A program made the position numbers and the translations under genes. A stretch of DNA of 64,000 nucleotides from a virus: the IMG/VR virus record IMGVR_UViG_3300008117_004657, positions 1 through 64,000 of that record; one strand, 5' to 3'. Shown here one piece after another: positions 17,716 through 41,762 of this stretch; within the stretch, counting starts at the first letter, position 1; each line of letters starts with the position of its first letter. The notes under the pieces were generated by a model. That model was not told where the DNA came from. It was given only the letters and a program-made list of their open reading frames with translations, and searched no databases.

Positions 17716-17717
17716 TT

Positions 17718-18099: not shown

Positions 18100-18414
18100 C
18101 TAAACAGAAAAACTACTTCCGCAACCACAAGTTGTTTGTGCATTAGGATTTTCTATTGTAAAGGTATGGCCCATAATATCTTCTTTGAAATTCAAAGTTG
18201 CAGAACTTAAATATTGCATACTAAAAGAATCTACAAGAATAGAAAATCCATCAAGAGGAATTTCAAAATCATCTTCAGAAAGTTCTTCTTCAAAGTCGAA
18301 TCCATATCTAAATCCAGAGCATCCTCCACCCTCAACGTAGACTCGCAAGTACTTATTTTCTTCATCTAAATATTGTTTAATTTCGTTGATCGCAGACTCG
18401 GTTACATTTAACAT
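18100..18414 (-). CDS. erpA: A-type iron-sulfur cluster carrier (ErpA/IscA/HesB family)
   Basis: LRVYVEGGGCSGFRYGF, VD.FSMQYL, NPNAQTTCGCGSSF with all three conserved Cys; AGGAGG SD. Confidence 0.92.
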   Translation of the reverse strand: MLNVTESAINEIKQYLDEENKYLRVYVEGGGCSGFRYGFDFEEELSEDDFEIPLDGFSILVDSFSMQYLSSATLNFKEDIMGHTFTIENPNAQTTCGCGSSFSV

Positions 18415-18436
18415 TAATACCTCCTATTAATACCTA

Positions 18437-18443
18437 TATTTAT
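18437..18443 (-). promoter_or_regulatory. Candidate T4-type late promoter (ATAAATA) upstream of erpA
   Basis: Intergenic tatttat about 22 nt upstream of the ATG. Confidence 0.45.
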
Positions 18444-18448
18444 TTTGC

Positions 18449-19006
18449 ATGGAAAAGACTATTTTAATGATACACACGATTCAAGATAAACTCTTGAATC
18501 ATCGATTGGAAGATTACATTTTAACATTTGATGACGGTCTTTACAACCATTTTTATTACTATCCAAAAATTAAAAAACTAAAAACAGAAAAAATATTTTT
18601 TATTTCAACAGATATTATTTGTGACGGTAAACAATCCAAACTTTTTATTAATTCAGAAGAATGCCACAAAAAAGCTTATATGGGTAATAAAGAAAATTTT
18701 ATGACATTAGAACAGATAAAATATTTATCCGAAGAAAAAAATGTTTTCATTGGAGGACATTCACATTTTCATAAAAATTTAAATTTGTTTTCTAACTTAA
18801 ACGACACAATAAGTCATATTAAAAAAGACACTGAACTTATGTTAGAGTGGTTTCATAAAAAACTAAATTTATTTCCAAATAAGTTTTGTTTTCCTTATAA
18901 TGATGACTTAAATGGATTATATAAATCGATATTGAAAACTTATGGTATTAATCAATTTTATGGAAAAGAAAGACTCGCAATAGAAAATATTAATTTGTCA
19001 AGTTGA
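18449..19006 (+). CDS. Polysaccharide deacetylase (CE4/NodB-like)
   Basis: LTFDDG, GGHSHFH and FCFPY motifs. Confidence 0.85.
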   Translation: MEKTILMIHTIQDKLLNHRLEDYILTFDDGLYNHFYYYPKIKKLKTEKIFFISTDIICDGKQSKLFINSEECHKKAYMGNKENFMTLEQIKYLSEEKNVFIGGHSHFHKNLNLFSNLNDTISHIKKDTELMLEWFHKKLNLFPNKFCFPYNDDLNGLYKSILKTYGINQFYGKERLAIENINLSS

Positions 19007-19574
19007 GTTTTGATGACAACATTTTGAAATAGATGTCCGATCTAAATTCATTTTGCCAAACTTTCTTTTCATTTTCATCAAAAGAAAAACCATGATTAAG
19101 TTTTATGGGCGCAAAATCTAAATCAATAAAACTTAATTCTTCTTTATACTCTATTATATTGTGAAGATTTAGAGATACATATCCCCAACCACATTTGACT
19201 GAATGATCCACTAACTTTTTTATATATTTTAAAAATTTTACTTGATTGGTACTTTTGAGATTTTGATCTACGAGTTTTCCTCTATAAGTAGAGTAACCAC
19301 AACAAATACCATTGTCATAAATGAATTCATGAAATGCAGGCACAGTCTCTTGAGTTATTAAACCCGTATGATAAATAGACATTTCTTTCATACCTAACCA
19401 TTGTAAATTTAGTCCGTCTAAAATATAATAACCTAAAGAAGTTCTTGAATAATATGAAATATTATTTATTATTTTGTAATAAAAGTTATTATCATAGTAT
19501 AAGGTAGCTTTTAAGTTATTACCCACATTTTCAATTTTTTTTAAATGTGAAAGATTTATATTCTCTAGAATCAT
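18990..19574 (-). CDS. Hypothetical protein, possibly a degenerate kinase-like (APH/PK-fold) protein
   Basis: YYKII, SLNLHNII and SFIDLD resemble the K, DxxxxN and DxD motifs, but the catalytic Asp is missing. Confidence 0.4.
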   Translation of the reverse strand: MILENINLSHLKKIENVGNNLKATLYYDNNFYYKIINNISYYSRTSLGYYILDGLNLQWLGMKEMSIYHTGLITQETVPAFHEFIYDNGICCGYSTYRGKLVDQNLKSTNQVKFLKYIKKLVDHSVKCGWGYVSLNLHNIIEYKEELSFIDLDFAPIKLNHGFSFDENEKKVWQNEFRSDIYFKMLSSKLNLTN

Positions 19575-19604
19575 AACAGATACGTTAAAATTTAAAATAA
19601 ATTT

Positions 19605-20249
19605 ATGCCACTACTTTTTGAAAATCCAAAATCAACTTTTATACACATTCCTAAAAATGCCGGAAATAGTTTCGAATCATGGGTAATTGAAAATAAAATT
19701 AAATATAAAAATGAATTCAATCACTACACTTTACAGCAATCTAAACAAATATGGCAAGATTTAGGTATAGTTTTTAGTTTTGTTAGAAATCCTTTTTCTA
19801 GAACCGTAAGCATTTTTCATTATTTAGGTCAAAATGCGGAAAGAAAAATTAAAGAAAAAAAATCAATCAACTTAATAGATGATTTGAAAACTGTAAAATT
19901 ATACAAAAAAGGTTTTGATTATTGGTTAAATTGTTTATTTGATACGTCTAGTGAATTTAATGAAAAGAATGAGGTTATGAGTTTTAATGGTGAAAGTAGT
20001 TGGCCTAGACGAGCACCTCAAGGATTTTGGTTTAATTGGGAAAAAATAGACTATGTAATTAAGATTGAAAAACTTAATCATGATATGGGAATATTGAAAG
20101 ACATATTCAAATTAAAAAAATGCACTTTAATACCTATTATAAATACTAGTGATCACAACGAATATAAAACTTATTATAATAATCAAAACAAAAAAATTAT
20201 TCGAAGTATGTTTGAATATGACCTGAACAATTTTAATTACGACTTTTAA
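19605..20249 (+). CDS. Sulfotransferase (Sulfotransfer_2-like)
   Basis: FIHIPKNAGNS (5'-PSB), SFVRNPFSR.VS (3'-PB) and a C-terminal D...FNY.F. Confidence 0.85.
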   Translation: MPLLFENPKSTFIHIPKNAGNSFESWVIENKIKYKNEFNHYTLQQSKQIWQDLGIVFSFVRNPFSRTVSIFHYLGQNAERKIKEKKSINLIDDLKTVKLYKKGFDYWLNCLFDTSSEFNEKNEVMSFNGESSWPRRAPQGFWFNWEKIDYVIKIEKLNHDMGILKDIFKLKKCTLIPIINTSDHNEYKTYYNNQNKKIIRSMFEYDLNNFNYDF

Positions 20250-20251
20250 AA

Positions 20252-21781
20252 ATGAATCATTGCTTATTATTTGGTGTAAATAACTATCACCGTTCTGCTG
20301 GTGCTCACAGAATAGCTTCTCAATTAAGAACAGACGGATGGGATGCCGAAGTTATAGACTTTTCAGTTAGATGGCCTTTAGAAAAACTTCAAGAATTAGC
20401 AAAATCTAGAATTAATAAAAATACAAAATTTTTTGGTTTTTCTTTTATATTCAATAGAATTCCCCAAGAAGAAGTGGTTGTTCAATTTATGAAATGGATT
20501 AAAAAAACTTATCCAAGTATAATTTTAATTGGTGGCGGTCAAGGCCTAATGACAGAAAAGTTTTCTATTTTAGACTATTATCTGGTTGGTTATGGGGAGA
20601 TAGGACTTAAAGCATTACTTTCTTATCTATTTTCGAATGGAGAAAAACCTAACTTTGATGCTGCGTTGATATTAAAAGAGAAAAAAACAAAAACAATCAG
20701 TACATTACACAAATATCCTGCACACCCTTTTCCCGAAGCAATTATAAAATATGAGCCTAGAGATTTTTATACTGAGCATGAATTTGGTCAAATAGAATTT
20801 TCTCGCGGTTGTAAATTTAAATGTTCTTTTTGTAATTTTCCTATTTTGGGAGTTAAAGGAGATTATACGAGAGATCCAGAAAGTGTATATGAACAATTAA
20901 TGTTTAATTATGATAATTATGGTATAAGAGATTACACTATTGCAGATGAAACGTTTAATGACTATACAGAAAAGCTTACTAAATTTGCTGATGTTGTAGA
21001 CAGGTTACCTTGGAAACCTTTTATGTCATCTTTCATAAGAGCAGATTTATTAGTATCAAGAAAAAAAGATAGGGAAGAATTATTACGTATGGGAGTGACT
21101 GCTCATTACTATGGTATAGAAACGTTCAATGAAAAAGCGGGAAAATATATTGGTAAAGGTATGAATCCTGAAAAATTAAAAGAAGGAATGATTGAAGTAA
21201 AAAATTTTTTTAAAAGTCATGTAGGAAATCGTTATAAAGGAACTATTGCTTTAATTGCAGGACTTCCCGGTGAAACTTTAGAAAGCTTAGAACAAACAAA
21301 AAAATGGTTAATAAAAAACTGGAGAGATCAAGTCGTAGCACCAAATGTTTTAGAAATTCACAAACCAATACCGGGTGCAAGAAATTCTAAACTTGATGAA
21401 GAATATGAAAAATTAGGTTATCGTGAAATAGTGTTGGATGAAAAAATAATGCTAGAAAAAATAAAAATGATAATCCACCATGATAACTTCGACATTAAAG
21501 TTGGAGATTCAGAAGGTTTTTCTTGGGAAAATAATGATATGAGTATATATGATGCTATACGTTGGACAGCAGAAATTGAAAAAGAAGTCTATGAAATTGG
21601 AGGAATTGATTTAAAAAAACCAGCTGCTCTTAAATTAGCTCAAATGTATTGTGACGAAAAAGGAAATGTTTTACCTTTAGACGATAAATTATCATTAACA
21701 TCGGTTTACCATGAAGATGCATTAGGTTCTAATTTTCAAATTTTTGTTGATAAATATATAGAAAAAAAATTAAGTATTTAA
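20252..21781 (+). CDS. B12-binding-domain radical SAM enzyme (class B methyltransferase-like)
   Basis: N-terminal Rossmannoid domain (IGGG, GYGE), SRGCKFKCSFC, ADETFND, GIET, IAGLPGET. Confidence 0.85.
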   Translation: MNHCLLFGVNNYHRSAGAHRIASQLRTDGWDAEVIDFSVRWPLEKLQELAKSRINKNTKFFGFSFIFNRIPQEEVVVQFMKWIKKTYPSIILIGGGQGLMTEKFSILDYYLVGYGEIGLKALLSYLFSNGEKPNFDAALILKEKKTKTISTLHKYPAHPFPEAIIKYEPRDFYTEHEFGQIEFSRGCKFKCSFCNFPILGVKGDYTRDPESVYEQLMFNYDNYGIRDYTIADETFNDYTEKLTKFADVVDRLPWKPFMSSFIRADLLVSRKKDREELLRMGVTAHYYGIETFNEKAGKYIGKGMNPEKLKEGMIEVKNFFKSHVGNRYKGTIALIAGLPGETLESLEQTKKWLIKNWRDQVVAPNVLEIHKPIPGARNSKLDEEYEKLGYREIVLDEKIMLEKIKMIIHHDNFDIKVGDSEGFSWENNDMSIYDAIRWTAEIEKEVYEIGGIDLKKPAALKLAQMYCDEKGNVLPLDDKLSLTSVYHEDALGSNFQIFVDKYIEKKLSI

Positions 21782-22422
21782 TCTCTAGAAAAAATGAGTT
21801 GAAAAGCTTCAGCGTATTTTACTCCAACTTGAACACCTCTAAACTTTGATCGTATTTCCATCGACTCCACGCTGCGAGCATCTGGATACTCATAGATTTC
21901 TGTTGAATATAAATTTAAAACTCGTTTTTTTAAGTCTATAAAATTAGATACATCCACATATGTATTAGGTTCAAATTTAGAAACAATCTGAGAAAAAGAC
22001 CAATCACTACTTGCTGGCATTTCTGAAAAATAAAGTTTTTTTACTGTAGAATTTAGTTTAGGGCGGCATGCCACCATACATGATTGTGAAACTATTCTAT
22101 GGTCCTTGTGTAAATCACCTATACTGTGTGTATAAACTATTTCGGGTTTAAAATTATTTACAATATTTTCAACTAAACTTTTAGTTTCTGGTAAAGACAA
22201 TAAACAGTCGGAAAAGTTATATATTTCTGATCTAGCACCCAACAAATCACAAGCTTGTTTAAAAGATTTTTTTCTTTCGTAAGAAACTTGTTCATTTCCA
22301 GGTCTACTACCATCACATAGTGATACAACTAAAGTTTCATTTTTCAAAGATGTTTTAGCTATAGTTCCTGCCGGTCCATAACTTTCATCATCTGGATGGG
22401 CAAATAAAAAAAGTGTTCTCAT
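21778..22422 (-). CDS. PIG-L/LmbE family N-deacetylase
   Basis: AHPDDE, D.HKDH, and a C-terminal RG..VG..YAEAF. Confidence 0.9.
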   Translation of the reverse strand: MRTLFLFAHPDDESYGPAGTIAKTSLKNETLVVSLCDGSRPGNEQVSYERKKSFKQACDLLGARSEIYNFSDCLLSLPETKSLVENIVNNFKPEIVYTHSIGDLHKDHRIVSQSCMVACRPKLNSTVKKLYFSEMPASSDWSFSQIVSKFEPNTYVDVSNFIDLKKRVLNLYSTEIYEYPDARSVESMEIRSKFRGVQVGVKYAEAFQLIFSRD

Positions 22423-23342
22423 AACATATCTCTAATAATGTCATCTATATTTTTAGATGGTGAATAATTAATATATTTTTTAATTTTTGTTAAATCTGGA
22501 ATCCTAACTTTTATGTCACCGTGATTTTTAGAAAAAGCGTTTTCATAAGGTACGTGAATTATCTTACTTTTGGAGTTTGTTATTTCTATTACTCTTTTTG
22601 CTAAATCGTCGATTGTCATAGGAATATCATTGCCTATATTGAATAATTCTCCTTGGATTGAAGATACTTTAATTAAAGAATTTAATGCATCATCTATATG
22701 ACAAAAACATCTTATTTGTTGTCCTGTCCCATATACTATTAAATCTTCATTCGATTTAGCAGCCTGTACAAATTTTGGAAGGACCATACCGTAATCTGCC
22801 AATTGGCCGGGACCTACAACATTAAAAAATCGAACTATCGTATATGGAAAATTACTAGCTCGAATCATAAACTCCATCATAAGTTTACTGGTAGCGTAAC
22901 CCCACCGAAGTTTACTACTAGGACCTATGTTAGCATTTGATTCTTCTGAAAATGGACCTTCTCCATACACCTCACTTGTACTAGAAAATACAACATGCCT
23001 TTTAACTTTTTCAAATAGTGGTAAGAGTTTATTATTTAATTCAATATTATTAAAAAGTGTTTCAGATGGATATTTGTCGATATATTCAACACCAACACTA
23101 CCGGCTAAATGAAATATCCTATGATTTTTCCTAAAAAGTCTCAGTAAATCATTATCATCCATTTTTATAATATCAGCTTCAATAAATTCAAACAAATTTT
23201 TATATTCTGAAAAGTCATCTAAATTTATACTAGAGGTTTTTAAATTGTCAATAATAGTAACACGTTCTTGTCTTGTTTTTAATAGTTTATGTGTTAAATT
23301 TTGACCAATAAAACCAGCACCACCTAAAATAATATTATTCAT
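22419..23342 (-). CDS. NAD-dependent NDP-sugar epimerase/decarboxylase (extended SDR, ArnA/UXS-like)
   Basis: GGAGFIG, HLAGSVGV, STSEVYG, RWGYATSK (YxxxK), RFFNVVGP, RCFCHIDD. Confidence 0.88.
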   Translation of the reverse strand: MNNIILGGAGFIGQNLTHKLLKTRQERVTIIDNLKTSSINLDDFSEYKNLFEFIEADIIKMDDNDLLRLFRKNHRIFHLAGSVGVEYIDKYPSETLFNNIELNNKLLPLFEKVKRHVVFSSTSEVYGEGPFSEESNANIGPSSKLRWGYATSKLMMEFMIRASNFPYTIVRFFNVVGPGQLADYGMVLPKFVQAAKSNEDLIVYGTGQQIRCFCHIDDALNSLIKVSSIQGELFNIGNDIPMTIDDLAKRVIEITNSKSKIIHVPYENAFSKNHGDIKVRIPDLTKIKKYINYSPSKNIDDIIRDML

Positions 23343-24033
23343 AAATTATATCATCAAATAAAATATACAAATATAAATTTGAATTTATGTCATCAATTCC
23401 ATGCAACCAATTTCTAGAATTAAAATTGATAATCATTTGTTGATTTATATTTGGTAAAAAATATTTTTTTTCTTCACCGGGAAAATTTACTCTAAGTTTC
23501 TCCCACCAATTAATAAAATCAAAAGAGTCATTAAACCCGGACAATAAAGATTTTTTAGGCATGGTATCCATAGTATTCTCTATATACTTGAACCAAAAAT
23601 ATTCCTTTATTTCTTCTCTAATTAAAATAGGTACAATAAAAGTGCGGGTGTTAATGGGAACTGAGTCATCATGTATTCTATATGGATGAGTATGAGCACT
23701 AAGTTTTTTTATATTATTAATAGGTAAAGATTTATCATTTCCTTGTATCCAACAAACGAATTGTGAGAGAGTTTTAATTTTATCTTTTTCAACTTCATCT
23801 ATAAAAATTTTTAAATATGAATAAAGTTTTGTATTAATTAAAAATTCTCTAACTTCTTTTAGAGTCCCTCCAGCATTAAAATGTATTTTGAAAAGTAAAT
23901 TGACTTCGTTTTCAAATCCAACTAACGCATTTTTCTCTTTCATATTTTGTTTACAGATGTCAAATAGTAATCCAACATCACTATCCACAATTTTTAATTG
24001 TGAGGGTTTATAATCAACATTCAAATTATTCAT
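23335..24033 (-). CDS. Hypothetical protein, possibly a cupin/2OG-Fe(II)-type oxygenase
   Basis: AHTH and a distal WLHGI pattern consistent with a double-stranded beta-helix metal site. Confidence 0.4.
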   Translation of the reverse strand: MNNLNVDYKPSQLKIVDSDVGLLFDICKQNMKEKNALVGFENEVNLLFKIHFNAGGTLKEVREFLINTKLYSYLKIFIDEVEKDKIKTLSQFVCWIQGNDKSLPINNIKKLSAHTHPYRIHDDSVPINTRTFIVPILIREEIKEYFWFKYIENTMDTMPKKSLLSGFNDSFDFINWWEKLRVNFPGEEKKYFLPNINQQMIINFNSRNWLHGIDDINSNLYLYILFDDIIYE

Positions 24034-24623
24034 TTATCTAAACCCCTTTTACCTGAAGTAAAATTTTCGTAAATTTCACCTAAGGTTATTTGTTCGATCT
24101 CCAATTCTTTTAATTCTACCATACATTTAACAACTTTATCAACGTGAGCTATATAATGAATTTTGTTAAAATCTTTAGGTTTATATGCTTTTTTATTTAC
24201 ACATCGTTTAATAAAACAATCGTCTTGCATACCTATTCCGTAGACACTTGGTATCCTATAGTTTACATAATTTCTACCAGAATATTTCAAATAAACTTCC
24301 ATACTTTGTTTTGCTATATTATAACATTCTTGTGCTGTGTTGTCAACACTTAATACTCCCATACTACTGGCATTTACGAATAAAGCTGTTGAATTTATTT
24401 TTAATGCTTCTCTAGTAACATCGAATATTATATCCATAGTTTTGGTTGGATTATTTACTATAAAATTCGTTGTGCTTGGACAAGCTAAATGGTAAATAAT
24501 ATCGCAATCGATTTGTCGAAAATTTCTACCTATTTCGTAGACAGTATCACCATTTTCTTCTAAAAGTTTAACTAAATTTTTACCTATAAATCCAGTAGAA
24601 CCTGTAACAACAACACGTTTCAT
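24030..24623 (-). CDS. Short NAD-dependent epimerase/dehydratase, UDP-glucuronate decarboxylase-like
   Basis: VTGSTGFIG, IYHLACPS...NPTKT (compare UXS IYHLACPASP...NPVKT), YNIAK, R..SVYG. Confidence 0.75.
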   Translation of the reverse strand: MKRVVVTGSTGFIGKNLVKLLEENGDTVYEIGRNFRQIDCDIIYHLACPSTTNFIVNNPTKTMDIIFDVTREALKINSTALFVNASSMGVLSVDNTAQECYNIAKQSMEVYLKYSGRNYVNYRIPSVYGIGMQDDCFIKRCVNKKAYKPKDFNKIHYIAHVDKVVKCMVELKELEIEQITLGEIYENFTSGKRGLDK

Positions 24624-24625
24624 AA

Positions 24626-25117
24626 TTATTCTTCCAACAAATTACTTTTCCAGAGAGCGTCGTCCCAACCTAAACGTATAAATCTGACTCCATTATATTT
24701 TAATCCATCTTTCAAATTTTTTATAAAAGTTGAAGAATCTTTTGGATCATAAAGAGGAATATCTAAAGCTTTCATAAGTTGGTGATCATCGAAAACTAAA
24801 TGTCCTCTACCACAAATACTATAACAACCATTATGACCAGCGTTAACAAATACTATACTTCCATATTTTTCTGCCCAACCTTTGATGTTTAGTTTAATCT
24901 GCTCATAAGATTTATAAATCACAAATCCGGCAACTCCGTAAATAATTACTTTTTTCCCTTGACTTGCTAACCCAGCTGCAATATTAATCATGTTGGGTTC
25001 CTGTACTCCACAATTTATTATATTGTAATTTCCATCTGTCCATTTCCACATGTCACAATGTAAAAAATAAACTTCTCCTTTATATAAATTTAAAAATCTA
25101 TTTAAATATTTTCTCAA
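24626..25117 (-). CDS. Transketolase pyrimidine-binding (C-terminal subunit) domain, minimal
   Basis: NCGVQEPNMINIAAGLA, YEQIK, GH...DD, FIRL; lacks the third domain. Confidence 0.82.
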   Translation of the reverse strand: MRKYLNRFLNLYKGEVYFLHCDMWKWTDGNYNIINCGVQEPNMINIAAGLASQGKKVIIYGVAGFVIYKSYEQIKLNIKGWAEKYGSIVFVNAGHNGCYSICGRGHLVFDDHQLMKALDIPLYDPKDSSTFIKNLKDGLKYNGVRFIRLGWDDALWKSNLLEE

Positions 25118-27077: not shown

Positions 27078-27094
27078 TAATAATTAATTTATAC

Positions 27095-28874: not shown

Positions 28875-28885
28875 TTTGAAAAGTA

Positions 28886-29701: not shown

Positions 29702-29709
29702 ATTCTATT

Positions 29710-33013: not shown

Positions 33014-33869
33014 TGTACTTTATTAAAAGGTCATCTTTTGTTAGGGACGTGTTTTGAATACCATCTTTTTTCCTAACTTCCAGTGCCTTATCATAATAAT
33101 CTACATCATAAATAATTTCTTTATCATAATACATACACTCCAAAATAAATCTACTAGAACAATCTTTTTTACCTGGCAGTTTGGTATAAACATATGTAGA
33201 AAACTTGTTCCACATATCAGGCACAGGAACTTTATATGTATTAAAATTTTGGTATAATTCTGGTTTATTCGTAAAAATTATACTATCTTTAATTGAATAT
33301 TTATTGATGACTTCAGTTAAATCTTCTTGTGGTAAGAATCGACTAACATCAGTTAAATAAAACATGGAAGAGTTTTCAATTTTTCCATCTATAGTTTTGA
33401 ATTTAGAATATAAAATTTTCTTTTTATAATCTATAACATTTAGTCCTTCTGGTATATCATCATATATCTCAAAATCTTGAAATAGATGGCTTGAAAATTT
33501 TTTATTTGAATAATAACTGAAATCTTTCTCATGACATCTTAAAAGAAAAAAGTTGTCACAATAAATTTCAGAATTATTAAACTTGGAATATCCGTCAACT
33601 ATTAATAAATTTTTCGTTAATAATAGTTTTGGATAAGGATGATAGACTAAATTTTCAATGGTTAAATCATGGTATTTCGATTTTAAAGCTATATTGAATT
33701 CTTCAATAGTCGTACCATCAGACAATAATATACAAGGATTTAAATTTGTCCAATTTTTTATAGCCCAATAGTATTCAATCATTTCAAATAAATGGCCACA
33801 AATACCAAATTTAAAGTTATATGAAGTGGTTATTACCAAATCATAACTTCTCAAATTAATTAAAGACAC
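32991..33869 (-). CDS. Hypothetical protein, possibly GT-B glycosyltransferase-like
   Basis: N-terminal GICGH..E and C-terminal DCSSRFILECMYYDKEII resemble the GT-B donor-binding E-x7-E region. Confidence 0.4.
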   Translation of the reverse strand: MSLINLRSYDLVITTSYNFKFGICGHLFEMIEYYWAIKNWTNLNPCILLSDGTTIEEFNIALKSKYHDLTIENLVYHPYPKLLLTKNLLIVDGYSKFNNSEIYCDNFFLLRCHEKDFSYYSNKKFSSHLFQDFEIYDDIPEGLNVIDYKKKILYSKFKTIDGKIENSSMFYLTDVSRFLPQEDLTEVINKYSIKDSIIFTNKPELYQNFNTYKVPVPDMWNKFSTYVYTKLPGKKDCSSRFILECMYYDKEIIYDVDYYDKALEVRKKDGIQNTSLTKDDLLIKYIDEQIKC

Positions 33870-33875
33870 TTAAAA

Positions 33876-34979
33876 TTATTTCAAAATAATTTGATCTATA
33901 CTAAGTGGATTGTATCCTAGATACTCAAAAAAGTTTTTTGGAACTTGATTTACAACATCTTGTTTTAAATTGTTGTCTAAAATATTTTTAACATATTCAG
34001 ATTTTAGTACATCAAAAAATAAATTTAAATTTTGATTCAAGTCAAAATTTGAAAAAATTTCTTGAAAATTGTCGATAGAGAAATTTTCTATAGATGAAGA
34101 TTCGCATTTAAATAATTCAAATTCGTTTATAATACTATTATAATTTGATAATTGATTTCTCAAAAAAATTTCTTTGTCGTCAAGTAAAAATTTTTCGTTT
34201 TTTAAATAATCTTCATATTTAATATTGATTACATTTGGTAAAGATTTTACTAATACCATATTAAAGATAGAAAAAATAAAATTTTTAAACTTATTATTTT
34301 TTTTAATATAATCTTCTTCATACCTTATTGCATCAAAATTATAATCTAAATTATTTATGAAAGAGCAAACACTAGGATTTCTTATAATATTTAAAACTCT
34401 AACATTTTCTTCTCCTAGTTCTTCTTTAACTTTTTGTATAAAAGATGGTGAAAATATTCCTGTCCATATATTATATGAATTTTTTTCTTTAAAAGAATTT
34501 AAGATATTCTGATACTCTAACGCATTGGATATTAAAATTTTTTTAATATCTTCATTAGAATAAATATCTTTATACCTAGAGTTTGATTGTAGATTTGTTA
34601 TTTCATCTTCCATTAAAACAAAAGATTCAAGATTGTAAAAAAAACTATCAAGATTGGTAGTTATCCAAGAAACTTCAATATGGTTTTCATTAAAAATTTT
34701 ATCTGTTAGTTCAATATTAAATTCTTCTATCCTTTGTATTAAAGAATAATTTTTTTGTTTTAATTCATCATCTTCAACATTCAGTAAACCATAATTTATT
34801 TTTCCTAAAGATTCATTATTACAATATACATTTTTTTGTTCAGAATCAAAAATTATAAAATCATCGTTTCTATATTTTACGGTATATTCATCAAATTCCC
34901 AAACTTTTTCGGCGTCAAGAATACTTCTAGATATGTATTTTAGATTTACAGTTTTAGGACCATTTATTAAGGTTATCAA
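33876..34979 (-). CDS. Hypothetical protein, degenerate sulfotransferase/P-loop-like fold
   Basis: N-terminal LINGPKT, LNIIRNPS, INIKYEDY and a C-terminal YLGY. Confidence 0.5.
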   Translation of the reverse strand: MITLINGPKTVNLKYISRSILDAEKVWEFDEYTVKYRNDDFIIFDSEQKNVYCNNESLGKINYGLLNVEDDELKQKNYSLIQRIEEFNIELTDKIFNENHIEVSWITTNLDSFFYNLESFVLMEDEITNLQSNSRYKDIYSNEDIKKILISNALEYQNILNSFKEKNSYNIWTGIFSPSFIQKVKEELGEENVRVLNIIRNPSVCSFINNLDYNFDAIRYEEDYIKKNNKFKNFIFSIFNMVLVKSLPNVINIKYEDYLKNEKFLLDDKEIFLRNQLSNYNSIINEFELFKCESSSIENFSIDNFQEIFSNFDLNQNLNLFFDVLKSEYVKNILDNNLKQDVVNQVPKNFFEYLGYNPLSIDQIILK

Positions 34980-34981
34980 AA

Positions 34982-35401
34982 TTATCTCCTTAAGTAAGAC
35001 TCAATAATTTCATTAACACTTTTCTCATCATTTAAATCTGGTAAAACTTTTAATTTATCAATTATATTATAAAATTCGTCTTTTTTTTCTTGTAATTGTT
35101 TAATTGAATCCATAAGGTTGATATATTTTTCCAACTTATTAATAAGTTCAACATCGCCTGTTTCTATAATTTTGATATAAACTTCTTCTCTAAGTTCTTC
35201 GGTTATGATGTATCCCTTTGAAGCCAGTTCATTGTTAATAGTCATAAAACTGACGAAATCCAATAATTTAAACGTCAAAAGTTCATCACCAAAAATTCCT
35301 CTAGCTTTTGTTTTACATGCTAGAGCAGCTTTACCCGCATAAGTATTCGCGTCTATACCTTCAATTTCAACTCGTTTTTCTTCCATAAAATTTATCTCCA
35401 C
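34982..35401 (-). CDS. Hypothetical helical protein immediately downstream of the Cys-rich fibre gene
   Basis: 139-aa ORF; no motif recognised. Confidence 0.6.
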   Translation of the reverse strand: MEINFMEEKRVEIEGIDANTYAGKAALACKTKARGIFGDELLTFKLLDFVSFMTINNELASKGYIITEELREEVYIKIIETGDVELINKLEKYINLMDSIKQLQEKKDEFYNIIDKLKVLPDLNDEKSVNEIIESYLRR

Positions 35402-35410
35402 TATTAATAA

Positions 35411-36337
35411 TTATTTAATCTCAAAAGGAAGTTCAGAATAATTAACCATATAAAAACCATTTTTGGTCATATAAACAGCATTAGAATATTTTGTTTTTAG
35501 AAGTTCTTGGGCCATAACACCGACAAAAGTCTCATTACTCCAAATATAAGAAAAACTGTAAACATTAATTCCAAAAATATTCTTCAAATATTTAATATTC
35601 CTTTTCAATCGTCTGTCACTATAATTACAATTGCATGTGCAAGAATAATTGCAGTTACATGTACAATAATTACAGTTACATGTACAATAATTACAGTTAC
35701 ATAAACATACTGCGCCAGCATCTTTTACTTTTTTAATTAAAGCATTAATGTCTGTCGCACTTATTCTAGTTGATAGTTGTGCGTTATTAGTGGTAGATAT
35801 ACCGGCAAATCCAGTAACAAAACCTGCTACCGAAATTGCAGGACCTCGGTCTACTTGTGGATTAGTAGTATTTGGTCCACCCCAGAGTTCAACACCACCA
35901 AAAGCTACAAATTGAGTGCCGTTAGGAAAAATTCGTTGCGTTAATTGAGAACCCGAACTTACAACACTTTCTCCTCCGGATGACGATGTAGTTATGAGAC
36001 CAAATGTCCTAGCTCCCGTTCTCTCTATCGAGGCTTTTAAATTATTTATTTGGGACGATGTTATGGAAGTGCCGGAACTGACAGTTGATCCTGACGGTGC
36101 AGAAAGTCCTCGCCTAGTACATTCAGACGCATAAGCGGTTCTAATAGCATTTATTGATGCAGCCCCAATTAACGATCCTGCTGTAACATCAGTCAAAGAA
36201 TAAGTTGTAGCAACTGCAGCGCCATTATAAACGTTTGCTTTTACTATGTAGGTTCCACTAGCATCGTTGTCAGGGTTGTAACCCTTTGCATGACCAGAGG
36301 AAGCAGGAGGTCTTTTTTTGGAAGATGAATACGGCAT
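35411..36337 (-). CDS. Cys-repeat fibre-like protein with C-terminal peptidase S74-type intramolecular chaperone; putative radical SAM substrate
   Basis: Ser/Thr/Gly-rich body, then CLCNCNYCTCNCNYCTCNCNYSCTCNCNY, then SDRRLKRNI...GINVYSF.Y...VGVMAQEL...GFYMVNYSEL. Confidence 0.85.
   Translation of the reverse strand: MPYSSSKKRPPASSGHAKGYNPDNDASGTYIVKANVYNGAAVATTYSLTDVTAGSLIGAASINAIRTAYASECTRRGLSAPSGSTVSSGTSITSSQINNLKASIERTGARTFGLITTSSSGGESVVSSGSQLTQRIFPNGTQFVAFGGVELWGGPNTTNPQVDRGPAISVAGFVTGFAGISTTNNAQLSTRISATDINALIKKVKDAGAVCLCNCNYCTCNCNYCTCNCNYSCTCNCNYSDRRLKRNIKYLKNIFGINVYSFSYIWSNETFVGVMAQELLKTKYSNAVYMTKNGFYMVNYSELPFEIK
35621..35707 (-). repeat. Four 21-nt/7-aa CxCNCNY coding repeats (12 Cys in 29 aa)
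   Basis: cagttacatgtacaataatta occurs as exact tandem copies, with synonymously diverged flanking units. Confidence 0.95.
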
Positions 36338-36338
36338 A

Positions 36339-36719
36339 TTAAATCTCTTTTGATAAGAAGTTTAAATTATCTTTAACTTTATTTTCTTCTAAAAATTTTT
36401 CATAATCATCAACATCAACAGTAGATGATAAAAAGTCCATAGTTTCTTTATCGGGTTCTTTATCTGACAAAGAATCTTCTGAAGATTCTTTAATTATATA
36501 CATCACCATTTCTTCTAAAGAAAAACCTAAAATGTTAGAAACAAGATTTATTTGATCGGAAATATCTAAAGTTCCTTTAAAGTCCTCTTTAGAAATAGTT
36601 TCCAGAACATTTATTGATAGACCTAATCCATCCAATAATACTCTACCCGCAACATTATCTTCTTCAGATATCTCACCCATAAGTCTAATTATTTCTTCTA
36701 TTTTTTCAGTGGTTTTCAT
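36339..36719 (-). CDS. Acidic hypothetical protein
   Basis: 126-aa D/E-rich ORF coupled between a radical SAM gene and the Cys-rich gene. Confidence 0.6.
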   Translation of the reverse strand: MKTTEKIEEIIRLMGEISEEDNVAGRVLLDGLGLSINVLETISKEDFKGTLDISDQINLVSNILGFSLEEMVMYIIKESSEDSLSDKEPDKETMDFLSSTVDVDDYEKFLEENKVKDNLNFLSKEI

Positions 36720-37579
36720 ACCAATTCCTTTTCTTTAAAATCTCGAAATTTTGGGGAACTCTCAATATTGAAATGTGTAGTAACATTTCCTTCGTCTGTA
36801 AAATACGTTTTAATTTCTTTTCTAATACTACATCCGTCACAAATATCACAAAATAGAGAACATACAGGCGACTGAATCTCATTATTTATCCAACTTAACC
36901 TGAGATTTTCTTTCATAGAATCTAAAAGTTTTAAGTCTTTCTCACTCAAAGTATCCCAGGCGACAGAGGTTATAAGTCTCTCCGGCCTAAAAGTTTTGAT
37001 TAGTTTAGTTATATCTTCGGAAGCTCGCCTTATATTCAATTTATGAATGGTATATCTTATTCGAAACCTGAAATTATTTTCCAATAACTTCTTAAATATC
37101 TTTACCATAAATGGTGTTGATTCCATACCATTGTGAAAAACTCTGTCTTTATTACCAACTCCATCAAAACTCACATCTATAGATAATAACTTCTTCTTAT
37201 AAAAAAAATTATTTTTAGTTACGTCTATGAAATCTTGGCTTAAATATTTAATACCATTTGTTGTCATATTAAAATGAACATTCTTCTTTTTACTATAGGC
37301 ATAGTCCATAGCAAAACAAACATTTTCCCATTCTAATGTTGGCTCTCCACCAAACAATACTATAAGAGTTTGCTGACTCGGATCCTCACGTTCTAAAATT
37401 TTATCAATACTTTTTACAATATCTTCTTTACTTAAAATTTGCGGCGGTCTTCCTGGTAAATCTTCATAGCAATACGTGCAAGCTAAGTTGCATTTATTGG
37501 TAAAATATAATACATTTACACCAGATCCAGAAACTATTGGTTTATTAGGATCTTGTATGTAAAATTGTTCTACATTCAT
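36716..37579 (-). CDS. Radical SAM enzyme (anSME/peptide-maturase-like core, short Cys-rich tail)
   Basis: CNLACTYCYE, LFGGEPTL, MTTNG, VSFDG, CSLFCDICDGC. Confidence 0.9.
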   Translation of the reverse strand: MNVEQFYIQDPNKPIVSGSGVNVLYFTNKCNLACTYCYEDLPGRPPQILSKEDIVKSIDKILEREDPSQQTLIVLFGGEPTLEWENVCFAMDYAYSKKKNVHFNMTTNGIKYLSQDFIDVTKNNFFYKKKLLSIDVSFDGVGNKDRVFHNGMESTPFMVKIFKKLLENNFRFRIRYTIHKLNIRRASEDITKLIKTFRPERLITSVAWDTLSEKDLKLLDSMKENLRLSWINNEIQSPVCSLFCDICDGCSIRKEIKTYFTDEGNVTTHFNIESSPKFRDFKEKELV

Positions 37580-37875
37580 TGTATTATCATTTTATGAGAA
37601 TTTTTATATCTATTTTCTTTTGGACGTTTTTTAGCTTCTTCAATTATGTGTCGCATGTTGTCCAAAAATTTGATATAATCTAATTTGTAATCAAATAAAT
37701 GTCCGGCTTCATTATATCCAACATATTTACTATCAACTTTAGCTTTACCTTTTCTAGCTTCTTCAATCTGCACTGATAACTCATCAACAGGAATTACTTT
37801 GTTTGATGCATGTTCAACAGGTTGCATCTCAACCTTTATTGGTATAGATAATAAACTTTTAAAATTTTTTTTCAT
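37576..37875 (-). CDS. Hypothetical protein
   Basis: 99-aa ORF overlapping both neighbours by 1-4 nt. Confidence 0.6.
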   Translation of the reverse strand: MKKNFKSLLSIPIKVEMQPVEHASNKVIPVDELSVQIEEARKGKAKVDSKYVGYNEAGHLFDYKLDYIKFLDNMRHIIEEAKKRPKENRYKNSHKMIIQ

Positions 37876-38723
37876 TAAATTTCCTTAGGATACATCATAA
37901 GTCCACCTTCACAAATTTCTTTCGGACAAATAACTTTTTTTGTAATATCTTTTAAAGATAACGGCATAATTTCATTAGTGCAAACATTTTTAACCAAATT
38001 ATCCAATTCTATTTGAAAAGATTCTGGCACACATTTATAATCTCTAAAAGAATTTTTTTTCTCATATAATAATTTTAAATCTGTTGTTCTTTCTTCCGAA
38101 CCATCATCATATAAAACATTTATATCTATCATATCTTCAGCATTAGAAGCTTCTGTAAAAAAATCTTGATCTAAGTTATTTGTGTAATATGGAGTATCAA
38201 CTAAAAAATTTAATTTAAATTTAATATTATTAGATTTACAGTTATCAATAATATTTAAAATATAGTTTTTATACTCTGGCATCATACTTATATGAACTTC
38301 ACAATTTAGATTTTTACACTTTTTTAAAAAATCCTCTTTGTGATATTCTGGATGAAAAGATGCATAATACTTAACTTTTGAAAAACTTTTTATACTTTTA
38401 TAAAAAGTTTCCGATCTAGTCAAGTTGGTAAAAAAATAAATTTTTACCAAATTTTTAATTTCATTTAATCCTTCCAGTATTTCTTCAATATTTGGATGTA
38501 ATGTTGGTTCACCACCAGTTAAACAAATCTCAAAAGGTTTAGAAATAGTTTTTAATCTACTTATTATTAACTTGTAACTTTGTGCAATCTGAGTCGTATC
38601 ATTGTAATCATAACTTAAATTTTCCTTTACATTACAGTATGAACACTTCAAATTACACCAATTCAATATATGCCAGTTAATTCTAAGAATTTTATCTTGA
38701 CTGGTGCAAGAAATAATTTTCAT
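37875..38723 (-). CDS. Radical SAM enzyme with Twitch-like C-terminus
   Basis: CNLKCSYC, TGGEPTLHP, FTN, SFHP, YKC...NVC...CPKEIC. Confidence 0.9.
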   Translation of the reverse strand: MKIISCTSQDKILRINWHILNWCNLKCSYCNVKENLSYDYNDTTQIAQSYKLIISRLKTISKPFEICLTGGEPTLHPNIEEILEGLNEIKNLVKIYFFTNLTRSETFYKSIKSFSKVKYYASFHPEYHKEDFLKKCKNLNCEVHISMMPEYKNYILNIIDNCKSNNIKFKLNFLVDTPYYTNNLDQDFFTEASNAEDMIDINVLYDDGSEERTTDLKLLYEKKNSFRDYKCVPESFQIELDNLVKNVCTNEIMPLSLKDITKKVICPKEICEGGLMMYPKEI

Positions 38724-38724
38724 A

Positions 38725-39849
38725 TTAATTCCTACACTCTACGCCTTCATTTTCAACACCAACATTTTCAATATAATGTAATACTAAATCTTGAAAAACT
38801 GGAACATCCTTACACTCATCAACAACTCTTAAACCCTGTTCATAATATATGTGAAATAATTCACAAATACTATCCAATGGTTTATTGTCATTCATAATTT
38901 GAGAATAAGTGCATCCAGTATTACATACTTGTTTTAAATCGCAAGGTTCACATTTATCAAAACTTTTAGGATTAAATATATCTTGATAATATTTAAAATT
39001 ATATTGTTCGTCCATCTTCATAATTTTTTTAGATGCAAATCTGGCGCAAGGATAAAATTCACCAGAACTCATCAAAACTCCACCATTGGTTCCTGCAAAA
39101 CATCCAAATGATCTTTTTCCTTTTACTAATCCATATAGTGTGTCCAAAATAGCTAGTCTGAGAAAGCCAACTGAACAAGCTTTACCTGATTTTAGTTTTT
39201 CTATCCAAAAATCCGCCAATCTTTCACATTCATATCTAAACTGTTTGATATCTTCTACAGTCCAAACATCATCTCGAACTATACTAAAATCGGGATGATC
39301 TATACCCCAATCTAGTAAGAATTGGAAATTCTCCGTCATATCTTTGGTATTACCTGGCCATATCATAACTTTACAACCGTTTGTTAAATCTTTTATGATT
39401 TCTTTCTTGTACTCATACATTGAAAGAATACCATCAAATAAATCTCCAGTTTCTGGATTAGTATTTTCTAAAAGTGGTAATAAAGGTCTAGTTTCATTTG
39501 AACTCATACCATCAAAAGACCAAGAAACACCGACACCATTTTCTTTTAAATAATGAGCTTTATTTTCATCAATCATCGTAAGATTTGTGATGATATTAAT
39601 ACCTTTACATTTCTTATCCGATTTCAAATAAGGAACGGCGTGAGTTATAAGATCCCAATTTAATAGTGGTTCACCACCAAAAAAACTTACATGATAATCC
39701 CTATCTCCCGATCTTTGCATCAAGTTGGGCAAATCTTTCATACCTTGATCGAAAACCTCTTTCGTCATCCAAGTTGGCCTATTTGCTACATAACAATAAG
39801 GACAACCTAGATTACATTTTTCAGTAACACTTACCTCTAATGTAAACAT
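38725..39849 (-). CDS. Radical SAM/SPASM peptide-maturase-like enzyme
   Basis: CNLGCPYC, FFGGEPLLNW, SFDG, and SPASM CFAG...YPCARF...CEPCDLKQVCNTGC...C. Confidence 0.93.
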   Translation of the reverse strand: MFTLEVSVTEKCNLGCPYCYVANRPTWMTKEVFDQGMKDLPNLMQRSGDRDYHVSFFGGEPLLNWDLITHAVPYLKSDKKCKGINIITNLTMIDENKAHYLKENGVGVSWSFDGMSSNETRPLLPLLENTNPETGDLFDGILSMYEYKKEIIKDLTNGCKVMIWPGNTKDMTENFQFLLDWGIDHPDFSIVRDDVWTVEDIKQFRYECERLADFWIEKLKSGKACSVGFLRLAILDTLYGLVKGKRSFGCFAGTNGGVLMSSGEFYPCARFASKKIMKMDEQYNFKYYQDIFNPKSFDKCEPCDLKQVCNTGCTYSQIMNDNKPLDSICELFHIYYEQGLRVVDECKDVPVFQDLVLHYIENVGVENEGVECRN

Positions 39850-39859
39850 TCTTTTATCC

Positions 39860-40966
39860 TTAAACTGTGCATTGTTCAGCCTCGATTTTAATCGTAGGCT
39901 TTTTATAACTCTTTAGTGCTGTTCTTAGAGCATGATGTACTATCTCATTCGTTTTGAATACCTTACATACCTGCCAATTAGCTGTATGATCACTCCATTT
40001 TTCTAAATAAGTTTCTTTTTCAGATTTCTCATAAGTCGCAGCATTACACTTCATACAAAACTGACTATCGCAACTCATACAGTCTAGTGGTTGATTTTTC
40101 AATGCGTCTTTATACATCTGAGATTTTTCTTCAATCAACTGATCTAAATCTGGAACTTTAAAAATATTACCGAGTTTATGTGAATGAGATTCTTTATACA
40201 TGCATCCGTGACAAGGACTTAAATCCCCATTCAAGTCCACACTCACATAATTTATACCTGCAGCACATAGAGCTCTAGACTGTTGAAACCATCCAAATTT
40301 TTCAGGAGGTAATTTGTTATCATAAATGTGTTTAGCAATTTTTTTCAATCCATCCTTCAAAACTTCTAATCTAGGCATGAATTCTTCTTCATTCAACTGA
40401 CTGTATAAGTCTGGTGTTGGAAAATAATTATTATCCATTTCTATTACATCTAGAAATGCTTCATAAATTAAATGGAAATTATCGGATGTCAAAACAGATT
40501 TCAATGAAACATTTAGCCCAGCTTGTTTAGCTGCAATATAGTTTGCTTTAACTAAGGCTGATGATGGAGTACCAGACTTAGTTACTCTTGCGATATCATT
40601 TACTGGTTTTCCATCATATGAAACTTGTAACTTTAGTCTACCTGGAATTTCATTATGAATTCTAACCAAATCTTTTAAATATCTTTTTAAATATGTTCCA
40701 TTTGTATAGAAGAAAAAAGAAAACCCAGGATCGTGTTTAAACTTCTCAATAACACCTTTACAAAAATCCCAATTAACAAACGGTTCGCCACCCCAAAAAT
40801 AAACATCCTTTTTAGGATCAGAAATTTTAGCCATAAATTCTTCAACATTATCTAATGTCAAAGAAGTATTTTCTTCAAACTCAGTAGATAGACCACACTC
40901 AAAACCTTCGGAACAATATGTGCAAGCTAAATTGCAAATACTTGTTACGTTTATATCTACTACCAT
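39860..40966 (-). CDS. Radical SAM/SPASM peptide-maturase-like enzyme
   Basis: CNLACTYC, FWGGEPF, YTNG, SYDG, and SPASM CAAG...PCHGC...CMSCDSQFCMKC...C; AAGGAG SD. Confidence 0.93.
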   Translation of the reverse strand: MVVDINVTSICNLACTYCSEGFECGLSTEFEENTSLTLDNVEEFMAKISDPKKDVYFWGGEPFVNWDFCKGVIEKFKHDPGFSFFFYTNGTYLKRYLKDLVRIHNEIPGRLKLQVSYDGKPVNDIARVTKSGTPSSALVKANYIAAKQAGLNVSLKSVLTSDNFHLIYEAFLDVIEMDNNYFPTPDLYSQLNEEEFMPRLEVLKDGLKKIAKHIYDNKLPPEKFGWFQQSRALCAAGINYVSVDLNGDLSPCHGCMYKESHSHKLGNIFKVPDLDQLIEEKSQMYKDALKNQPLDCMSCDSQFCMKCNAATYEKSEKETYLEKWSDHTANWQVCKVFKTNEIVHHALRTALKSYKKPTIKIEAEQCTV

Positions 40967-41021
40967 TTTTTCTCCTTTTATTTTAAATCAAAGACGCACT
41001 AGTATATAGTAGTTGATAAAC

Positions 41022-41759
41022 TCAATCAACATTTCTGTAGTATTCGTTCAGTTCTAAAACTTTTTTAAGTAATTCTACATCATAATTTTTCACCAAACAC
41101 TCGGTATCTTTTGGTAAGCAAGGACCTCCAAATCCTCTTTTTCCGTCAGGTCCAGGAACTTTAAAATGATTGGATCCCATCCAAGGATGTTTAGAAAGTA
41201 TTTCGATAGCTTCCTCATAGTTTACCTCCATCTTTTTAGCTACATCATACATTGAATTCATAAAAATAACTTTTGTTGCATAAAAAGAATTCATTGAGTA
41301 TTTTATAAAAGAAGCAGTATTGATATCCGTTATGAATGTATTACTCATATCTACAGTAGAATACTTTCTATAAATTTCTAATGCTTGTTCAGATTTATTA
41401 CCCGATAAAATCGTTAGAGGAGGATTTACAAAATCTTCCTTTGAAGTGGACCTTGATAAAAATTCTGGATTATATACTACGTCATATTGTTTTAAATATT
41501 GTGGTAACACAGTTGATTTGACTATGACAACTCCTTTATAATTCATTCGTCGTATTTCATCAAGTACAGAAATCAACAAAGAATAATTAGTGTTATCTGT
41601 GGGAGTAGGAACACAAACGAAGATAGCCTCAGGATTTAATAAACAAAGGCCTTTCACCGTTACGTGATTATATTTCGGATCACAAACAAAAACTTTAGTT
41701 TTGGAAAAGCCGTATTCAACGGCTTGTCCAACCATTCCATAACCAATAATTCCAATCAT
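41022..41759 (-). CDS. ugd: UDP-glucose/GDP-mannose 6-dehydrogenase family (short form)
   Basis: GIIGYGMVG, FVCVPTP, KSTV.P, YNPEFL, K...N, GFGGPCLPKD; lacks the C-terminal UDP-binding domain. Confidence 0.85.
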   Translation of the reverse strand: MIGIIGYGMVGQAVEYGFSKTKVFVCDPKYNHVTVKGLCLLNPEAIFVCVPTPTDNTNYSLLISVLDEIRRMNYKGVVIVKSTVLPQYLKQYDVVYNPEFLSRSTSKEDFVNPPLTILSGNKSEQALEIYRKYSTVDMSNTFITDINTASFIKYSMNSFYATKVIFMNSMYDVAKKMEVNYEEAIEILSKHPWMGSNHFKVPGPDGKRGFGGPCLPKDTECLVKNYDVELLKKVLELNEYYRNVD

Positions 41760-41762
41760 AAT

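Follow-up and report, generated by a model that had tools for sequence, protein, structure and literature searches.

We analyzed a 64,000-nucleotide stretch of viral DNA (hereafter the window), positions 1 to 64,000 of the IMG/VR record IMGVR_UViG_3300008117_004657, and focused on a block of enzyme genes at 18100-41759 that contains nine radical S-adenosylmethionine (rSAM) genes and the gene of a protein with a cysteine heptad repeat (the Cys protein). The source record comprises 72,977 b and is estimated to be 43% complete. The source is a freshwater T4-like myovirus. The gp6-type baseplate wedge protein is approximately 43% identical to those of the Pelagibacter phages HTVC008M and Mosig, the Methylophilales phage Melnitz, and cyanomyoviruses; baseplate and tail genes are marked by PHROG matches at 51.5-63 kb, and lake and freshwater metagenome runs contain near-identical DNA. 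The block holds around 30 open reading frames (ORFs), mostly on the minus strand, whose neighbors abut or overlap by a few bases, in agreement with the tight coupling described in the initial annotation, which had been made from the sequence alone. It is placed between genes for a 1162-aa and a 1103-aa fiber-like protein, and its GC content is 0.25-0.32 versus 0.39-0.41 in both flanking genes. These two had been called tail-fiber genes; they are fiber-like, with weak PHROG support for the fuller name. The features at the center of the analysis are the following.

20252 (plus strand, with a B12-binding domain) and 27939, 29710, 30461, 32018, 36716, 37875, 38725 and 39860 (all minus strand): starts of the nine rSAM genes (PF04055)
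39860-40966, minus strand: rSAM-A, core SPASM enzyme (PF04055 56 bits; TIGR04085 31.5 bits; PapB the best NCBIfam match)
38725-39849, minus strand: rSAM-B, core SPASM enzyme, the best conserved of the three core enzymes (PapB, 130.8 bits)
37875-38723, minus strand: rSAM-x, an extra rSAM found in only some relatives (present in locus L035, absent from L001 and L028; Pfam and gene maps)
36716-37579, minus strand: rSAM-C, core rSAM with a short C-terminal Cys cluster (PapB the best match, 89 bits)
35411-36337, minus strand: Cys protein of 308 aa, comprising in order the N-terminal domain, the conserved helix at aa 194-208, the four heptads at aa 211-239 and the S74 domain at aa 240-308 (translation; PF13884 E 8.8e-7)
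35621-35707, minus strand: (C-x-C-N-C-N-Y)x4 repeat, the proposed modification site (translation and family alignment)
35414-35620, minus strand: S74 self-cleaving chaperone, beginning with Ser240 of SDRRLK (Pfam; AF2 pLDDT 84-93)

All nine rSAM translations contain CxxxCxxC and, in the search of the whole 72,977-b record, score 31.9-62.6 bits against PF04055 (cut-off 29.5), which bears out the count of nine given before. In rSAM-B, the SPASM cysteines C250, C268, C300-x2-C303-x5-C309-x3-C313 and C329 are invariant in 17 sequences, and CxxxCxxC likewise. A SPASM domain is also recognized in rSAM-A (TIGR04085, 31.5 bits against a cut-off of 27) and in 27939 (PF13186, 21.7 bits against 21.5); the remaining rSAMs have C-terminal Cys clusters and no SPASM model match. 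PapB (NF047865) is the best NCBIfam match for 38725, 36716 and 39860 with 130.8, 89.2 and 77.4 bits, followed by other thioether and peptide maturases, and the other six rSAMs match generic models only. The PapB scores lie below the equivalog cut-off of 340, as do the 82.4 bits of QhpD (TIGR03906; cut-off 453) and the 54.6 bits of the anaerobic sulfatase maturase (TIGR03942; cut-off 349). TIGR04463 is not among the matches listed for the phage rSAMs, which are the best 25 for some of them. When the rSAM-B profile was compared with the PDB, CteB (5WGG) was found across the rSAM and SPASM parts with E 1.4e-39, followed by 8VPO and anSME, and the sugar-modifying rSAM BtrN was found with E 4.7e-5. 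Sequence similarity places the core trio nearest to thioether-forming peptide maturases, within the SPASM group that modifies peptides and proteins.

The Cys protein carries the heptads CLCNCNY, CTCNCNY, CTCNCNY and S-CTCNCNY at residues 211-239, directly followed by SDRRLK and Peptidase_S74, and the four-fold CxCNCNY protein of the initial annotation is thus where it had been placed. The S74 domain scores 29.6 bits against PF13884 (cut-off 22; aa 240-288), and S240, D241, R243, L244 and K245 are invariant among 25 aligned family members. Both the Ser and the Lys have roles in S74 self-cleavage. This C-terminal domain, "chaperone of endosialidase" in Pfam, is known from phage fibers and spikes, and in the Cys protein it comes with Ser-Asp-x-Arg-x-Lys; what differs here is that it stands directly after an invariant Cys heptad repeat and can be split off or absent in relatives. 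A word-indexed family search retained 560 of 5367 candidates at E ≤0.001, mostly of 200-340 aa and with no functional names. In the alignment of 25 members, every heptad Cys and Tyr and most Asn are invariant, and the body is variable. In a set of 947 heptads with some redundancy, Thr fills position 2 in 74%; N/D/Q occupy position 4 in 98% and N/D position 6 in 97%, and an aromatic residue stands at position 7 in around 98%.

Among 48 distinct proteins from the fetched loci, the heptad number ranges from 3 to 28, and the chain finishes in one of three ways: in a full S74, in an SDxxLK stub of 12 residues, or at a stop codon that adjoins the repeat. The closest relatives, of the L035 type, end in ...CNCNYS-stop, and many others likewise terminate directly after the repeat, showing that S74 is dispensable. 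On the translations, all three endings leave the repeat as the C-terminus, given cleavage in the case of S74. Repeat number varies among near-identical strains, because a 98%-identical relative (P0001, 301 aa) has 3 heptads instead of 4. The Cys gene occurs in one to four tandem copies across lineages, which, like the varying heptad number, is a RiPP-like trait. Such paralogues with differing bodies were seen four in a row at L027:8264-10828 and three at L007:8963-11020; a 12-residue SDE(Q/R)(L/V)K stub ends most of these copies, including all four in L027, and one L007 copy has a full S74. At L035:10510-10971, a separate 153-aa hydrophobic ORF replaces the S74 part, between the Cys gene and the gene p139 described below. 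In the AlphaFold2 (AF2) monomer model, the S74 and N-terminal helical parts are confident and the repeat has a predicted local distance difference test score (pLDDT) below 50; the model has no match in the PDB at E ≤0.001. A prediction of a three-copy complex of residues 25-308 scored 0.00 and carries no weight either way.

The linkage between the repeat and the rSAM genes was followed in both directions, and the co-occurrence proposed in the initial annotation was found in each. The repeat was found at 45 loci in IMG/VR, and 41 of these 45 records have 3-16 rSAM matches; the other four are fragments that are 9-25% complete, and all five repeat records of at least 90% completeness have rSAM matches. 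For comparison, five complete repeat-free T4-like relatives have 2, 0, 1, 0 and 0. rSAM-A was matched in 39/45 loci and rSAM-C in 40/45. In the reverse scan with the rSAM-B profile, 78 loci were kept out of 349 confirmed stretches. Among the 37 loci with at least 30% identity to rSAM-B, 27 have the strict repeat and 2 a variant repeat (29/37); the other eight are L054, four loci at contig ends, one further CPt10 locus, one partial match, and L076. The repeat was found in 0/41 of the kept loci below 30% identity. Furthermore, a search of 185,579 species genomes confirmed the repeat on only five contigs of metagenome-assembled genomes, with the three rSAMs adjacent in four of the five. Enzyme sets that commonly occur without a Cys-rich protein had been named beforehand as evidence against the proposal; this is not what was seen for the core enzymes, with one full-context negative among the 37. 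Collectively, these comparisons support the view that the Cys-repeat protein and the SPASM rSAM set are a unit conserved both ways across very distant phages. On the gene maps, the heptads are ordinary also where no rSAM-C is adjacent, and heptad type showed no tie to the loss of this gene.

The locus L054 deserves a separate description. L054:12630-13100 is 100% identical to L002:9940-10700 across the Cys gene save for a 284-bp deletion, which takes the gene middle and the whole repeat and stops exactly before the SDIRLK codons. Because its length is not a multiple of three, the deletion reflects either a collapse in assembly or a naturally knocked-out variant.

The gene order around the Cys gene distinguishes an aquatic lineage from more distant ones. 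In the former, the dehydrogenase at the right end of the block is followed by rSAM-A, rSAM-B, (rSAM-x), sm99, rSAM-C, sm126 and the Cys gene, and then by p139, p367, p292, rSAM-D, a family 2 glycosyltransferase (GT2), rSAM-E, rSAM-F and the U32-like gene. Distant lineages retain the core only, namely a gene with the fiber C-terminal domain, rSAM-B, rSAM-C, rSAM-A, one to four tandem Cys genes, and p139. On the gene maps, the minimal core is three CteB/PapB-like rSAMs (SPASM seen in rSAM-A and rSAM-B), the repeat protein, and p139. The neighbors of the rSAM and Cys genes in the window are listed below.

37576-37875, minus strand: sm99, small conserved protein between rSAM-B and rSAM-C (gene maps)
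36339-36719, minus strand: sm126, small acidic protein (translation and gene maps)
34982-35401, minus strand: p139, 139-aa helical protein after the Cys gene in nearly all lineages (matched in 33/45 loci)
28886-34979, minus strand: extended core of p367, p292, rSAM-D (32018), GT2 (31353), rSAM-E (30461), rSAM-F (29710) and U32-like protein (28886), in the same order in L001-L008, L027, L028, L035 and L056

For sm99, no family match was found in Pfam or NCBIfam and no usable match in the ESM Atlas. The AF2 model of p139 has a pLDDT of 91, and comparison with the PDB (Foldseek, VIA-align wide) gave generic helical matches only, with Z at most 6.9; the ESM Atlas again gave no usable match. A likeness of p139 to TIGR04463 (E 0.034) is at chance level and was disregarded. 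The initial annotation had also named a U32-like protein. The product of 28886 stays below the threshold of that family with 16.2 bits over 39 residues (cut-off 22.4), and 5 of its 11 relatives match U32 weakly (best E 7.4e-4); the name is kept here as a label for a sub-threshold likeness. Profiles of the U32-like protein, p292 and p367 gave nothing meaningful against PDB sequences. An "RNPS" stretch seen by eye had raised p367 as a candidate sulfotransferase, and 0/10 relatives match such a family. Eight ORFs of unassigned family and the two flanking fiber-like proteins have no Pfam match at E up to 1.

The minimal core is also found in Campylobacter phages of the CP220 type. Firehammervirus phages (CP220, CPt10 and CP21) have, like the source phage, the repeat protein, rSAM-A and rSAM-B homologues and both parts of a transketolase-like protein, and CP21 and IBB_35 also have a halogenase homologue. 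In CPt10, the repeat protein is gp145, a 534-aa "hypothetical protein" with CxCDCNY heptads that are annotated only as DNA repeats, and an rSAM-A homologue lies 2.3 kb downstream of its gene. In CP220-type phages, one transketolase-like part is found directly upstream of the Cys-repeat gene. The available text on CP220 and CPt10 terms their 11-12 rSAM genes "highly unusual" and suggests a metabolic role (PMC2853527), and that on IBB_35 lists its rSAM among rare features (PMC3322345). Following this suggestion of 2010, the rSAMs of the window could be auxiliary metabolic genes that boost host metabolism and are unrelated to the Cys protein, and the presence of ErpA and of the B12-binding rSAM in the block would suit such a role. 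We consider this highly improbable, given the two-way linkage of the rSAMs to the repeat protein and the fact that none of the nine exceeds the cut-off of any named metabolic rSAM family.

Overall, we lean towards reading the window as the site of a conserved phage cassette in which SPASM rSAMs would install thioether cross-links on the (CxCNCNY)n protein. The phage probably cross-links a protein of its own, because the conserved Cys repeat sits among enzymes of the Cys-stapling type. From the gene content, the motifs and the linkage described above, we infer which protein is the substrate, by what chemistry and in which order it would be modified, and its place in the virion, as follows. The 308-aa product of 35411-36337 would be made as a pro-protein. 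rSAM-A, rSAM-B and rSAM-C (39860, 38725 and 36716) would then act on the (CxCNCNY)4 tract, which is unstructured in the monomer model, and the conserved helix at aa 194-208 before the first Cys, also seen in CPt10 gp145, is a candidate docking element. The likeliest chemistry would be a thioether from Cys sulfur to carbon (ranthionine-type) on the Asn/Asp side chains three residues downstream, for which each heptad offers C1-x-x-N4 and C3-x-x-N6. After modification, S74 would trimerize the protein and cleave itself off at Ser240, and since it removes itself there, the stapled repeat would become the exposed C-terminus of a small fiber-type protein. ErpA probably feeds the heavy Fe-S demand.

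Several known cellular systems resemble parts of this cassette; in the searchable literature, no listed title or abstract opening describes a phage combination of repeat protein and rSAM, and heptad words give nothing relevant there, in line with the initial annotation, whose author knew of no characterized system of this kind. In PapB/freyrasin and CteB/thermocellin (5WGG), SPASM rSAMs likewise lie beside a Cys-rich repetitive substrate, with tandem substrate genes. In contrast to ranthipeptides and the SCIFF group, in which the substrate is a 40-60-aa peptide with a leader, the phage substrate is a protein of 140-530 aa, the enzyme scores are far below the family cut-offs, and the S74 self-cleaving domain comes after the core; the system is viral instead of cellular. 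The earlier idea of a cluster like those for peptides that are synthesized by ribosomes and modified post-translationally (RiPPs) holds as to the SPASM enzymes beside a Cys repeat and their best matches, PapB and CteB. It does not extend to the classical form of such clusters, given the 308-aa substrate, no RiPP recognition element (RRE) on or beside the maturase, and, in the Pfam analysis of the block ORFs, no peptidase, leader protease or ABC exporter.

A counterpart with a large protein substrate is the Methanococcus voltae pair CrpC and CrpA. According to the available text of PMC13692751 (2026), the SPASM rSAM CrpC installs ranthionine cross-links on CrpA, a large Cys-repeat protein, and C-x-x-Q/D is read there as the thioether signature, with metal binding also considered. 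CrpA has its Cys-rich tandem repeat at the C-terminus with C-x-x-Q/D, and the phage heptad has C-x-x-N/D/Q twice. The differences are a repeat of 17 residues in CrpA versus 7 in the phage protein, an RRE on CrpC, and the archaeal, cellular setting of the pair. The words "phage" and "viral" are absent from the main text of that paper in the form available. A second likeness is to QhpD, QhpG and QhpC. As described in the accessible part of PMC7876137, QhpD forms three Cys-to-Asp/Glu thioethers in QhpC, an aromatic residue of which is then altered by a flavoprotein; in the phage island, SPASM rSAMs are similarly accompanied by a flavin halogenase, and the heptad has an invariant Tyr. Among the matches of rSAM-B, QhpD ranks fourth (82 bits versus 453). 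Unlike the phage protein, QhpC carries a leader of 28 residues and is served by a dedicated protease according to the same source, and unlike the Qhp flavoprotein, that of the phage is of the Trp-halogenase family and occurs in many phages without the cassette.

A number of observations weigh against the thioether cassette. rSAM-B lacks the RRE domain of CteB in cis, because its alignment starts at CteB residue 102, and no RRE in trans was detected, sm99, sm126 and p139 showing no PqqD-like or other family in Pfam, NCBIfam and structure searches. With scores so far under the cut-offs of the families (130.8 versus 340 for PapB), the rSAMs could carry out another type of reaction. Linkage is also imperfect: L076 is a full-context locus with the enzymes and without the repeat, G015 is a 43.8-kb fragment with a 17-heptad gene and no rSAM, and the rSAM genes of the Campylobacter phages are scattered instead of forming one block. 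Some of the counted loci are on contigs that are nearly the same (such as L035-L042), and the gene maps put the number of independent lineages at roughly 28, not 45, as an estimate. As for the virion, placing the repeat protein there draws on its S74 domain and on gene position, amid same-strand fiber and baseplate genes and with a recurrent neighbor that has the fiber C-terminal domain. Matches of the Cys protein to "virion structural" and "tail fiber" PHROGs are confined to its S74 part, and the body has no homology to known fibers or virion proteins in PHROG and structure searches. A search for longer forms gave seven matches, of which five were examined, and no canonical long fiber fused to the repeat was among them (three resemble CPt10 gp145 or are otherwise Cys-rich, and two have S74 alone).

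These last points, together with the many relatives that stop after the repeat and the 534-aa CPt10 gp145, which has no S74 and a further CxC-rich tail, would fit a different fate of a modified protein. The rSAMs could modify the Cys protein to give a non-virion, RiPP-like product that serves in metal capture, anti-defense or antimicrobial action, in the infected cell or after lysis, with S74 as a removable folding or trimerizing follower. We regard this as quite unlikely, as the gene always lies within the fiber and baseplate region, usually directly after a gene whose product shares its C-terminal domain with the 1103-aa protein, and Pfam describes S74 domains from fibers and spikes.

The remainder of the block bears on what else the phage may make, and comprises the following features.

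21778-28874, minus strand: left arm, with rSAM-G, p285, transketolase-like N, flavin halogenase, transketolase-like C, short SDR (short-chain dehydrogenase/reductase), ORF, epimerase/dehydratase and PIG-L deacetylase
18100-21781: ErpA (18100, minus), polysaccharide deacetylase-like (18449, plus), ORF (18990, minus), sulfotransferase (19605, plus) and B12-binding rSAM (20252, plus)
41022-41759, minus strand: shortened nucleotide-sugar dehydrogenase that closes the block on the right, syntenic in relatives
14026-18050, minus strand: flank, 1162-aa fiber-like protein and 110-aa protein of a tail-fiber-assembly-type PHROG (phrog_3304, E 4.8e-22)
41763-45074, minus strand: flank, 1103-aa fiber-like protein, whose C-terminal domain recurs upstream of the rSAM trio in many lineages (PHROG)

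Most enzyme names of the initial annotation hold in this part of the block. The Fe-S carrier at 18100-18414 is ErpA (NF010147, 134.4 bits, above the equivalog cut-off of 117), and the halogenase at 25114 scores 213.6 bits against PF04820 (cut-off 21; E 6e-63) with "WVWNIP" in its translation. WxWxIP is the diagnostic motif of flavin-dependent Trp-type halogenases. Sugar-type enzymes were matched in several families, namely an NAD epimerase/dehydratase, a short SDR, a PIG-L deacetylase, a polysaccharide deacetylase, the split transketolase-like pair and the shortened nucleotide-sugar dehydrogenase. The glycosyltransferases and sulfotransferases, given in the plural, reduce to one of each above Pfam thresholds, a GT2 (31353) and a sulfotransferase (19605, Sulfotransfer_2). 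The transketolase-like protein is encoded in two genes, 24626-25117 and 26337-27077, with the halogenase gene between them.

Whether all of these genes serve one fiber, as the term dedicated island had implied, was answered in part. The block is syntenic in five relatives (G028, G037, G008, G005 and G001) between the same fiber-type genes, with the run of U32-like, transketolase-N, halogenase, transketolase-C, SDR, epimerase, PIG-L, deacetylase and ErpA genes; the sulfotransferase (one weak relative), the B12-binding rSAM, rSAM-G, p285 and two ORFs are rare or peculiar to the source phage. Trp-halogenase-family matches are found in 18/45 repeat records, just past the U32-like gene. Halogenase homologues also occur in 69 isolate phage records, 65 of which are not Campylobacter phages (cyanophages, pelagiphages and others), and among 24 isolate records matching rSAM-A there is no cyanophage or pelagiphage. 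That many phages have the halogenase and lack the cassette speaks against one dedicated island. One island devoted to one fiber is a possibility for the source lineage, and a glycan pathway would account for the sugar genes just as well. Six further rSAMs, the U32-like protein, GT2, the halogenase, the split transketolase and the sugar enzymes accompany the cassette in this lineage and may tailor the same protein or make a glycan.

The glycan pathway is one half of a further alternative, in which the Cys repeat would serve structurally as a ladder of metal sites or disulfides, the rSAM, U32, GT2, transketolase and sugar genes make or modify a glycan or small molecule on the virion or host surface, and the linkage reflects a shared host-range island. 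CxC motifs are typical metal ligands, T4 long-fiber tips have His-x-His iron sites, and CxC repeats could bind metals without any enzyme, a point that likewise counts against cross-linking. The island contains a full sugar-nucleotide-type enzyme set with GT2, syntenic with the cassette in the five relatives, and split transketolase homologues occur in the Campylobacter phages too; for CrpA, the authors of PMC13692751 also weigh metal binding in the text available. However, the rSAM trio still stands beside the Cys gene in L010, L012, L016, L018, L029, L061, L064 and L070, from which the sugar genes are absent, and the trio belongs by similarity to the peptide- and protein-modifying SPASM group (CteB E 1.4e-39 versus BtrN 4.7e-5). 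We therefore think this alternative unlikely.

Extending the preferred thioether reading, we tentatively suggest that phages from lakes, guts and poultry Campylobacter may staple the (CxCNCNY)n tail of a small fiber protein into a protease- and redox-proof tip by RiPP-type radical chemistry, with three SPASM enzymes, perhaps one per cysteine register, and with the halogenase, GT2 and sugar enzymes as possible decorators. Stapling of this kind by rSAM thioether chemistry is known for small peptides and, among cellular proteins, for two kinds, QhpC and CrpA. The Cys protein would be the first known virion component with enzymatic cross-links; a virus modifying its own, probably structural, protein would be a new use of the chemistry. 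If true, the proposal would give a function to at least 560 proteins that have no annotation, explain the 11-12 rSAM genes of CP220-type Campylobacter phages, which are considered for biocontrol and have posed a puzzle since 2010, and show that phage receptor-binding or fiber parts can gain stability beyond folding.

Several minor observations concern the surroundings of the block. The C-terminal ~130 aa of 41763-45074 correspond to phrog_22593, which is elsewhere a free-standing ORF of 174-227 aa or the end of long fiber-like proteins and lies immediately upstream of the rSAM trio in many lineages; this domain may be a partner of the Cys protein. Two giant ORFs on the same strand, 877-11847 and 45325-51528 (3656 and 2067 aa), presumably encode further fiber or baseplate-associated proteins. 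The T4-type late promoter word TATAAATA occurs once in the whole 64 kb versus 15.3 expected from shuffles, a strong depletion, and the sole copy lies at 20138-20145 on the plus strand, upstream of the B12-binding rSAM gene. A megablast search of 30000-42000 against isolate phages and a tblastn search with the 602-aa protein gave no match. Two freshwater metatranscriptome runs contain identical contigs of 151-301 nt on the Cys gene, rSAM-C, rSAM-A and neighboring genes at a depth of 2-3, which are not taken as expression because of this depth and possible DNA carry-over. One contig from an RNA library omits 183 bases of the 1103-aa fiber-like gene (43322-43506) and has 21 other letters instead, which is probably a strain variant in a repetitive part.

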